Both the position numbers and the translations under genes were made by a program. A stretch of DNA of 36,561 nucleotides from Candidatus Omnitrophica bacterium CG11_big_fil_rev_8_21_14_0_20_63_9 (lineage in GTDB: Bacteria; Omnitrophota; Gorgyraeia; Aquiviventales; Aquiviventaceae). Shown in pieces: positions 26,933-28,202 of the stretch; within the stretch, counting starts at the first letter, position 1, and each line of letters opens with the position of its first letter. A model generated the notes under the pieces. It was not told the DNA's origin. It saw only the letters and a program-made list of their open reading frames with translations, and did no database searches. The stretch spans positions 4,456 through 41,016 of the forward strand of contig PCVX01000006.1 in assembly GCA_002796105.1 (NCBI GenBank). Reading direction: 5' to 3'.

Positions 26933-27235
26933 ATGCAACAGAATCGTCGTCGGGGTGGTGCAATTCGGACGGCCGGAGTCTTCACGTTGGGAGCCGCGCT
27001 TGGCGGCCTGTGCGGGGTACTCTTCGCGCCGGCAGCCGGTCAGGTGACGCGGCGCCGGTTGGCACAGCGCGCTCGCAACCTGCAGCGCGAGACCGCTCGT
27101 CGCCTGGGCAGAACGCAGAAGGTGCTGGCCCACAAGGCGGTGGAAGTGCGTGAGGCTGCCGGCGAGTGGATTACCGACCACATGCCGCGCGCGCACAACG
27201 GCCGACAGATCCGCCGCCACGCGCACACGAACTAA
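26933..27235 (+). CDS. YtxH-domain protein
   Basis: FTLGAALGGLCGVLFAPAAGQVTRRRL signature; GAGGAGG SD. Confidence 0.85.
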   Translation: MQQNRRRGGAIRTAGVFTLGAALGGLCGVLFAPAAGQVTRRRLAQRARNLQRETARRLGRTQKVLAHKAVEVREAAGEWITDHMPRAHNGRQIRRHAHTN

Positions 27236-27257
27236 GCATTATCAGCTCGAGTTAGGG

Positions 27258-27291
27258 AACGGCCCCCCGGTCTTGCGGTGGGGCCGTTTTT
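27258..27291 (+). terminator. Intrinsic terminator
   Basis: AACGGCCCC / GGGGCCGTT stem followed by a T tract. Confidence 0.75.
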
Positions 27292-27324
27292 CCTTTCCCA
27301 CTCTGCTATAATCGGGTCAATCGC

Positions 27325-27489
27325 ATGCGCAACGCACCCGCTCGGCAAGTCGCCGAAGAGCTCAAAGTCCTTCTGGAGCGCCTGCGGGCGCTCGGCAAGG
27401 AAGAGCGCGTCCGCAAGGGGCCTGACACGGAAGCGATCGAAATCGCGGTCGTCAACCTCGATGCCGCGATCGATATCCTGACCGAGTAG
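27325..27489 (+). CDS. Small hypothetical protein (54 aa)
   Basis: MRNAPARQVAEELKVLLERLRALGKEERVRKGPDTEAIEIAVVNLDAAIDILTE*; coding-like codons; TGcTATAAT at 27304-27312; below the ORF-track cutoff. Confidence 0.7.
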   Translation: MRNAPARQVAEELKVLLERLRALGKEERVRKGPDTEAIEIAVVNLDAAIDILTE

Positions 27490-27570
27490 AGCTCTACCGC
27501 TTCCAGCCCCTCATGCCACGTTGGTCATTCTGTCATCACCGCTGCGGCATCATAACCAGGCGTGAGCCTA

Positions 27571-27856
27571 GAGTTGGTTTCACAACCTCGCGCGAGCCGC
27601 GTTGCGAACGCCAGCGGGCTAGATGCCAGGAGCGACGACGAAGGTGTACCCCCTGGGGTACTCCGAGGAGGAGCGACACCGCAGATGGCCCGCTGCCGCC
27701 GCAACCACCTGTCGGACCATGGGCTGGGCCGATCTGCGTCGCCCCGCGTTGTTGCTCGTCGCTCGCGTACTCGTCTGCGAGTACGCCACGCTCCTCGCGC
27801 CTCGCGGGGCTCGCACCTCGGCCCAGCGCGGCTGCGGGAGGTTTTGAAACCAACTC
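27571..27856. mobile_element. Non-autonomous MITE (286 bp) with terminal inverted repeats and TA duplication
   Basis: TIR GAGTTGGTTTCA(C/A)AACCTC (18/19 match, extends imperfectly to ~33 nt); TA on both sides (27569-27570, 27857-27858); two internal GTAC-closed hairpin modules. Confidence 0.85.
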
Positions 27857-27869
27857 TAAGGAGGTCGCG

Positions 27870-28202
27870 ATGAAACGACTGATTCTGGGATTGGCGGCGG
27901 GTCTCATGCTGGGCGCCATGGCCTACGGGCAGGATGATGACGCGCTGCAGAGCGCGCGGCTTGAAGAAATTGCGGTGGGCGCCGGCAGCCGCGCCACCTT
28001 CGCGGTGCCACCGGAGTACGGCCGGCTGGCCGATGTCGCGGTGAATTCTGGGGTCCACTACCTGTATTTTGAGGATTCGCAGGGAGTCATCCGGCTCGTC
28101 CTGATCGGCCCGCGGGGCGCGGTGCCGCGCTCGCGGCTTGACGTGCAGCTGCTCAGCCCGCAGGTCTACGTGGTGGAGCGCGCTGCTGCGCCGGCATCGT
28201 AA
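27870..28202 (+). CDS. Hypothetical secreted protein
   Basis: AAGGAGG SD; signal peptide MKRLILGLAAGLMLGAMAYG; LYFED motif. Confidence 0.75.
   Translation: MKRLILGLAAGLMLGAMAYGQDDDALQSARLEEIAVGAGSRATFAVPPEYGRLADVAVNSGVHYLYFEDSQGVIRLVLIGPRGAVPRSRLDVQLLSPQVYVVERAAAPAS

Follow-up and report, generated by a model that had tools for sequence, protein, structure and literature searches.

The window, by which we mean the whole 36,561-nucleotide stretch analysed here, carries a 286-bp non-coding element at 27571-27856. We read this element, with a probability of about 0.8, as a type II MITE that is mobilised by IS5-family transposases and carries a structured core kept for its single-strand fold. 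MITEs are usually seen as decayed ISs with a filler interior, but in this case the interior is the conserved part and the ends are exchanged. The window was taken from Candidatus Omnitrophica bacterium CG11_big_fil_rev_8_21_14_0_20_63_9 (GCA_002796105.1, contig PCVX01000006.1, positions 4,456-41,016), whose genome, labelled G000, measures 1.86 Mb and is 84% complete.

In the mechanism that we propose, IS5-family DDE transposases acting in trans would recognise the terminal inverted repeats of ~19 bp and move the element, which would insert at TA, usually within pyrimidine-TA-purine, and duplicate the TA. The borrowed ends flank a conserved passenger core consisting of an inner stem and two hairpins of ~105 nt in opposite orientation. 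Each DNA strand, and either transcript, would then bear one hairpin with a tandem-G.A internal loop, and we infer that the core is kept by selection on this single-strand fold, be it DNA or RNA.

The element and its neighbours comprise the following features (window coordinates, strand, description):

27325..27489, plus: upstream 54-aa ORF without a Pfam family (orthologues in five relatives)
27569..27570, no strand: left copy of the TA target-site duplication (sequence; duplication known from filled and empty sites of another copy)
27571..27589, plus: left terminal inverted repeat, 19 nt, end class V1 (first 18 nt equal to the ends of the ~930-bp IS5-family IS at L260 and L270)
27590..27600, plus: conserved inner part of the outer stem, pairing with 27828-27837 (consensus fold and pair counts, helix 1)
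27601..27705, plus: module 1, type A hairpin, with a GAC-type arm 5', a GAG-type arm 3' and a GTAC-containing apical stem (model R1, 108.8 bits; stems covary, helices 2-4)
27630..27676, plus: purine zipper of module 1, four tandem G.A/A.G, 27630-41 versus 27665-76, around the apex (32 copies)
27706..27722, no strand: linker of variable sequence joining the two modules (unconserved in alignment A1 and in A2)
27723..27827, minus: module 2, type B hairpin, with a GAG-type arm 5' and a GAC-type arm 3' in minus-strand reading (R1, 34.4 bits on the minus strand; arm-swapped type kept across the phylum)
27756..27796, minus: purine zipper of module 2, two tandem G.A/A.G, 27756-60 versus 27792-96 (30-32 of 32 copies)
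27838..27856, minus: right terminal inverted repeat (sequence and repeat finder)
27857..27858, no strand: right copy of the TA duplication (sequence; filled and empty sites of another copy)
27859..28202, plus: AGGAGG (27859-64) immediately 3' of the right TA, then a 110-aa ORF with its ATG at 27870 and a signal-peptide-like start

The two 19-nt ends (27571-27589 and 27838-27856) agree with each other in 18 of 19 nucleotides and are bounded by TA at 27569-70 and 27857-58. With a repeat finder, the inverted arms reached 25 nt at 92% match (27569-27593 with 27834-27858). The element is short, lacks a transposase gene, and showed no conserved ORF. It occupies a 380-nt gap between the 54-aa ORF, which ends at 27489, and the co-directional 110-aa ORF, which starts at 27870 and had no Pfam family match either. 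A scan revealed no promoter-like or terminator-like sites inside the element and no promoter-like site in 27200-28100. Rfam returned nothing relevant around the window copy (E ≤ 10) and no matches in six distant copies (E ≤ 1).

Two observations concern the surroundings of this copy. One reading frame is open through the entire element (27562-27873), and its TGA overlaps the downstream ATG (ATGA, 27870-73); this is probably due to chance, as the in-element ATG sits in a covarying stem. A terminator-like hairpin followed by a T-run lies just 5' of the 54-aa ORF (27268-27296), so that a single transcription unit may span this ORF, the element and the genes 3' of it.

Mobility and the transposase partner

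The element had been described in the earlier note as a MITE with flanking TA dinucleotides, and the MITE reading was confirmed by a congeneric genome in which the exact insertion site is empty. The site is filled in genome G034 (contig C26; copy L081, 3879-4168) and empty in G023 (contig C5), and the flanks of 667 and 1032 nt share 93-94% identity. A single TA is present in G023 as against two in G034, demonstrating that the TA is a true target-site duplication. At this target the TA is common to the TAG stops of two convergent ORFs, and the terminal G of the element rebuilds both. Next to this copy lies a different repeat of ~95 nt (L081:3134-3232), with matches of ~80% identity, on both strands, in six or more contigs of G023.

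TA was present on both sides in 19 of the 32 distinct full-length copies from the taxonomic family. Among the 32 copies, a pyrimidine preceded the target in 27 and a purine followed it in 28. Most copies examined were intergenic or located at stop codons, and at least 9 of the 32 abutted an ORF whose TAG stop was rebuilt from the TA and the G of the element end, as counted with a crude ORF caller. The two ORFs that flank the window copy stand element-free at a distance of 42 nt in G027 and 75 nt in G023, sequences too diverged from the window to yield an exact empty site. A DNA-level search in G032 for the orthologous site of a copy in the congeneric G002 gave no match, these genomes being too divergent.

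G000 itself contains a single copy according to BLAST, and no second one was found with 7-letter words. A check of copy number and empty sites thus gave one copy in the element's own genome, with further copies and an empty site in its relatives. Recent pairs of copies with different flanks occurred within single genomes (L057/L061 in G017, 99.7% identical; L014/L046 in G025, 98.3%). Copies from different genera are ~95% identical, while the host genes flanking the window site are 65-69% identical, which points to horizontal spread. We also found decay products, namely solo ends and two one-module deletion forms that keep both ends. Logan contigs from four other groundwater runs contained the same filled junctions, and no contig in these runs skipped the whole element. 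One joint from 27613 to 27720 (run X2, 25-letter side) came from a contig of 90-95% similarity and probably stems from another copy.

The family has six or more end classes, which differ from one another in both arms at once. Ends were paired in all 32 full copies except the chimeras L053 and L092. In the commonest class, V2, ~19 nt are identical to the ends of an IS of 0.88-0.92 kb, which contains a slippery A6G run and whose two ORFs match PF13340 and PF01609. The NCBIfam model NF033580 ('IS5 family transposase') scored 123 and 120 bits on the V2 ISs (cut-off 110), which are located at L169:3575-4456 in an Acidobacteriaceae MAG and, flanked by TA, at L251:1070-1988 in the family genome G026. 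For V1, the class of the window copy, we found an IS of the same type and ~930 bp with matching ends at L260, L270 and L286; the MAG in which it resides is titled delta proteobacterium and has it on three contigs. ISs of the IS427-type subgroup duplicate TA. An IS partner was identified for V1 and V2, so that the earlier note, which had guessed at an IS5-like partner, was right for two classes including that of the window.

A related IS with similar ends is present in the phylum genome G146, and the left end of an IS5-type gene in G157 was not found. Matches listed in a 15-mer pattern scan for V2 ends were mostly due to chance. An 18-mer scan for V1 returned 46 stretches, approximately the number expected by chance, of which only L260, L270, L286 and L293 were informative beyond the known copies; the 18-mer scan for V3 gave MITE copies and chance matches alone and no IS. 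L293:83-187, in a Vicinamibacterales MAG, is a 105-bp element with V1 ends, flanking TA and an unrelated short core, and is thus a second MITE riding the same IS ends in another phylum. A DDE_Tnp_1 ORF near a copy in G169 was considered as a candidate partner and belongs to an unrelated IS.

The cognate transposase gave no match in G000. With an IS5-type protein as query, 2 of 35 family genomes had matches, and NF033580 exceeded its cut-off in 3 of 151 phylum genomes. At E ≤ 0.001, NF033580 was found in 3 of 17 element-bearing genomes and in 25 of 134 others, i.e. without association. No DUF4096, DDE_Tnp_1 or Y1_Tnp match was obtained in G159, which is 98% complete and contains ~14 elements, and in G026 the IS is present and the element was not found. 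All host genomes are MAGs; since ISs are often left unassembled in these, an absent transposase is a weak negative. The ISs themselves are without the core, indicating that the transposase does not need it.

The two-hairpin core

Folding of the whole element gave predicted energies of -175.7 kcal/mol on the plus strand (z -9.1) and -178.5 kcal/mol on the minus strand (z -9.05), and none of 200 shuffles folded as well on either strand. In the consensus fold, an outer stem formed by the ends and a conserved inner part encloses two hairpins of ~105 nt with a variable linker. Across 32 copies, 97.3% of the cells were paired and 42 of 84 pairs had changed on both sides; none of 500 shuffles reached the observed level, and slid controls were 33-44% paired.

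We built a covariance model of module 1 from the 32 copies (R1). In the window, R1 matched 27601-27705 on the plus strand and 27723-27827 on the minus strand with the bit scores listed above, in agreement with the two modules in opposite orientation that had been proposed from the sequence. The same arrangement, one strong match on one strand and an adjoining weaker one on the other, was obtained for each element. Two hairpin types are kept across the phylum: type A, with a GAC-type 5' arm and a GAG-type 3' arm, and type B, which lies on the opposite strand with the arms swapped. A coding reading of the period-3 GAC/GAG tracts was rejected because the variation tracks pairing and not codons.

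Tandem sheared 5'-GA-3' pairs are stable in RNA and single-stranded DNA, whereas the complementary TC/TC mismatches are not. In module 1, tandem G.A/A.G oppositions occur at 27630-31/27675-76, 27634-35/27671-72, 27637-38/27668-69 and 27640-41/27665-66, with C-G pairs between them. In module 2 (minus-strand reading, plus coordinates) they occur at 27792-93/27759-60 and 27795-96/27756-57. The four GA/GA pairs claimed for module 1 and the minus-strand zipper claimed for module 2 are thus in place, and their register is conserved among the 32 copies examined. In module 1 the G.A opposition is present in 31-32 of 32 copies and the A.G in 19-32; in module 2 the two tandems are present in 30-32 of 32 copies, and up to two further ones in 4-5 copies. 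The central G.A oppositions are near-invariant overall (30-32 of 32).

The purine tracts hardly vary, opposite to the stems, and between classes of the phylum the zipper loops are unchanged while the surrounding stems have turned over. In copy L060, two Watson-Crick pairs stand in place of one tandem, which confirms the tandem register. G.A tandems split by single C-G pairs make the element a clean natural model of purine-zipper structure, in RNA or in single-stranded DNA.

Wobble pairs differ in number between the strands. In an alignment fitted to R1, in which the copies are related to one another, G-U outnumbered A-C on the own strand by 66:16 in 74 type A hairpins and by 40:29 in 61 type B hairpins. 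On the plus strand of the 32 copies, the ratio of G-U to A-C was 23:5 in module 1 and 8:13 in module 2. With RNA parameters, the predicted mean energies of the pyrimidine-loop and the purine strand were -54.3 versus -56.7 kcal/mol for type A and -48.7 versus -53.4 kcal/mol for type B, a slight advantage for the purine strand. Of the 74 type A hairpins, 48 folded better on their own strand under RNA parameters, as did 52 of the 61 of type B. Under DNA parameters this was so for 26 of 74 in type A, which is no advantage, and again for 52 of 61 in type B.

The strand asymmetry is thus real in sequence terms, and both strands are predicted to fold. The earlier note had proposed one well-folded arm per strand: there is indeed one zipper hairpin per strand, but the pyrimidine strand is predicted to fold strongly as well, and the proposal thus makes the difference in energy larger than it is. 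Its broader claim, that single-strand structure and not a plain palindrome is under selection, is supported by the covarying stems, the near-invariant G.A oppositions in 32 copies and the excess of G-U over A-C. RNA and single-stranded DNA are indistinguishable as the acting form from these sequence data.

In plus-strand reading, the 5' arms of the two modules (27631-27639 in module 1, 27757-27765 in module 2) are exactly complementary to each other, and so are the two 3' arms (27667-27674 and 27790-27797). On one strand the arms follow each other as a, b, a', b', an interleaved and not a nested layout that the whole phylum retains. Such a layout would fit a designed loop-loop or alternative pairing, for which the arms, being invariant, are uninformative in terms of covariation. 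Two copies in different genomes (L012:1494-1819 and L067:2691-3027) carry an extra small hairpin of ~33 and 52 nt, respectively, at the same point of module 2. The two extra hairpins differ in sequence and have repeated CTCGT on their flanks, and each resembles a yet smaller element lodged within the MITE.

Host range and exchange of ends

Within the same taxonomic family, 25 of 34 genomes had matches, compared with 1 of 26 genomes sampled outside it. With all candidates scored, the numbers of matches per genome were 16 in G018, 15 in G025, 12 in G002, 7 in G029 and 5 in G017, and many family matches were located at contig ends. Of 151 genomes sampled from the phylum as a whole, other classes included, 17 contained the R1 hairpin pair, with ~4-14 elements in each. 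Records with exact core patterns were titled Candidatus Omnitrophota and some Planctomycetales; seven matches to the core patterns in records titled as other phyla had no further similarity and were discarded. The hosts of the element are Omnitrophota. The earlier note had likened it to multicopy GTAC elements of Deltaproteobacteria; from a MAG titled delta proteobacterium we obtained only the IS with the same ends. Our literature searches gave no text on MITEs or insertion sequences in Omnitrophota. For the annotation of these genomes it matters that the elements rebuild stop codons, part genes from upstream signals and can extend reading frames.

On a tree of the cores, the end class changed 12 times. 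The possible minimum was 5 and the mean of shuffled labels 16.8, and none of 200 label shuffles had as few changes, showing that the end classes cluster, but not cleanly. Elsewhere in the phylum the ends differ again: G159 has at least eight variants, G169 a second, unrelated class, and in G195, a single contig, four copies have four different ends. The zipper loop sequences are constant throughout. In the second class of G169 (GTGTTGCCAACC...; L328, L331, L332 and L333), the core is the same and taatg always follows the right end. This points to a different kind of partner and to either a site-specific target or an end that is asymmetric.

In copies L053 (117-406) and L092 (7200-7491), the left and right ends belong to different classes, owing either to recombination between sub-families or to chimeric assembly across repeats. 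Recombination inside the common core would account for the re-assortment, though not for the first acquisition of a new end class.

Type II MITEs are defined in PMC10969869. Like type II MITEs derived from IS5, the element is small and non-coding, shares only its TIRs with an IS, has a short target duplication, and occurs in multiple copies with presence/absence polymorphism. It is unlike them in that one conserved, covarying core is combined with many end classes that re-assort on the core tree, and in that the window element is G+C-rich rather than A+T-rich.

Possible roles of the core

We prefer a role of the core in cis, in the element's own propagation. The fold-back might bring the two ends next to each other, with the zipper serving as a recognition surface in either orientation. 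This is a guess and not a finding. We prefer it because full two-module copies dominate and every near-identical recent pair is full-length, whereas one-module forms that keep their ends are rare. A conserved interior with exchanged ends raises a testable question, namely whether the mobility of a non-autonomous element, or its toleration by the host, benefits from a structured passenger.

In the main rival reading, which we consider less likely, the core would act at the RNA level for the host or render insertions harmless, the transposon ends being a vehicle only. By landing in the TA of stop codons or in short operon gaps, the element would be co-transcribed and provide a stable end or processing structure irrespective of its orientation. 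The sites of insertion agree with this: the rebuilt TAG stops abut at least nine copies by the crude caller, on both sides in L081, and the window copy lies between co-directional ORFs, immediately 5' of a ribosome-binding site. The core is poor in stop codons (2.8 over six frames versus 8.0 in Markov shuffles), the readable orientations relative to the neighbouring gene are about even (3 versus 4), and RNA parameters favour the purine strand of either hairpin type. The negative scans for promoter-like and terminator-like sites and the negative Rfam searches speak against an RNA role, as do the sequencing runs listed for the locus, among which there was no RNA run, and the position of the insertions, which differs between genomes and is not conserved. 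If harmlessness alone mattered, shorter derivatives that keep their ends should spread equally, and we saw two.

Two further kinds of known element share features with the present one. Correia elements (NEMIS/CREE) of Neisseria are likewise intergenic MITEs, their transcripts form a long hairpin, and they duplicate TA. PMC10969869 reports that they have promoters and an IHF site and that RNase III cleaves at their inverted repeats. They differ from the present element in host phylum, in the promoter-like sites that it lacks and in its core, a doublet of purine-zipper hairpins. The Rickettsia palindromic elements (RPEs), which are not known to have an IS partner, are palindromic too, and the core described here is stop-poor; copies here, unlike RPEs, are mostly intergenic or at stop codons. 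RPEs are described as palindromic repeats that can lie inside genes and leave the reading frame intact (PMC10969869).

We consider it rather unlikely that the doublet is an evolutionary unit in its own right, i.e. a phylum-specific module that binds a conserved Omnitrophota factor, or an orientation-free RNA, and persists by taking up the ends of unrelated ISs time and again. If this were true, the doublet would be an end-swapping passenger rather than a decayed IS.

A core without any function is highly unlikely. It would imply one young lineage that spread horizontally, with covariation and G.A loops inherited from a palindromic ancestor, and both the cross-genus identity of ~95%, far above that of host genes, and the lack of coding capacity would fit. 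Yet copies differ by up to ~25-40% and still have 97.3% of their stem cells paired, with 42 pairs changed on both sides. Moreover, the G.A loops are unchanged between phylum classes despite the turnover of the stems, and on the own strand G-U exceeds A-C.

REP and IS200/IS605 elements are not known to make a target duplication. The TA duplication at the G034/G023 site and the lack of a Y1_Tnp association (15 of 20 genomes with strong element matches versus 9 of 14 others; none found in G159, in G169 with ~13 elements, or in G017) contradict, together with element ends identical to those of IS5-family ISs, the hardly credible reading of a REPIN/BIME-like doublet moved as single-stranded DNA by RAYT or an IS200-type Y1 transposase, with an outer stem that is merely structural, even though REPINs with RAYT are also inverted doublets of hairpin units with conserved single-strand structure dispersed between genes, strand-specific wobble pairs occur here, and 25 of 35 family genomes have ORFs with a Y1_Tnp domain. 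The units differ in size as well, measuring ~105 nt here as against 20-40 bp for REPs (PMC3733652). The Y1_Tnp ORFs of the family, IS200- or RAYT-like, are mostly 200-330 aa long (nine matches in G025) and are unrelated to the distribution of the element.
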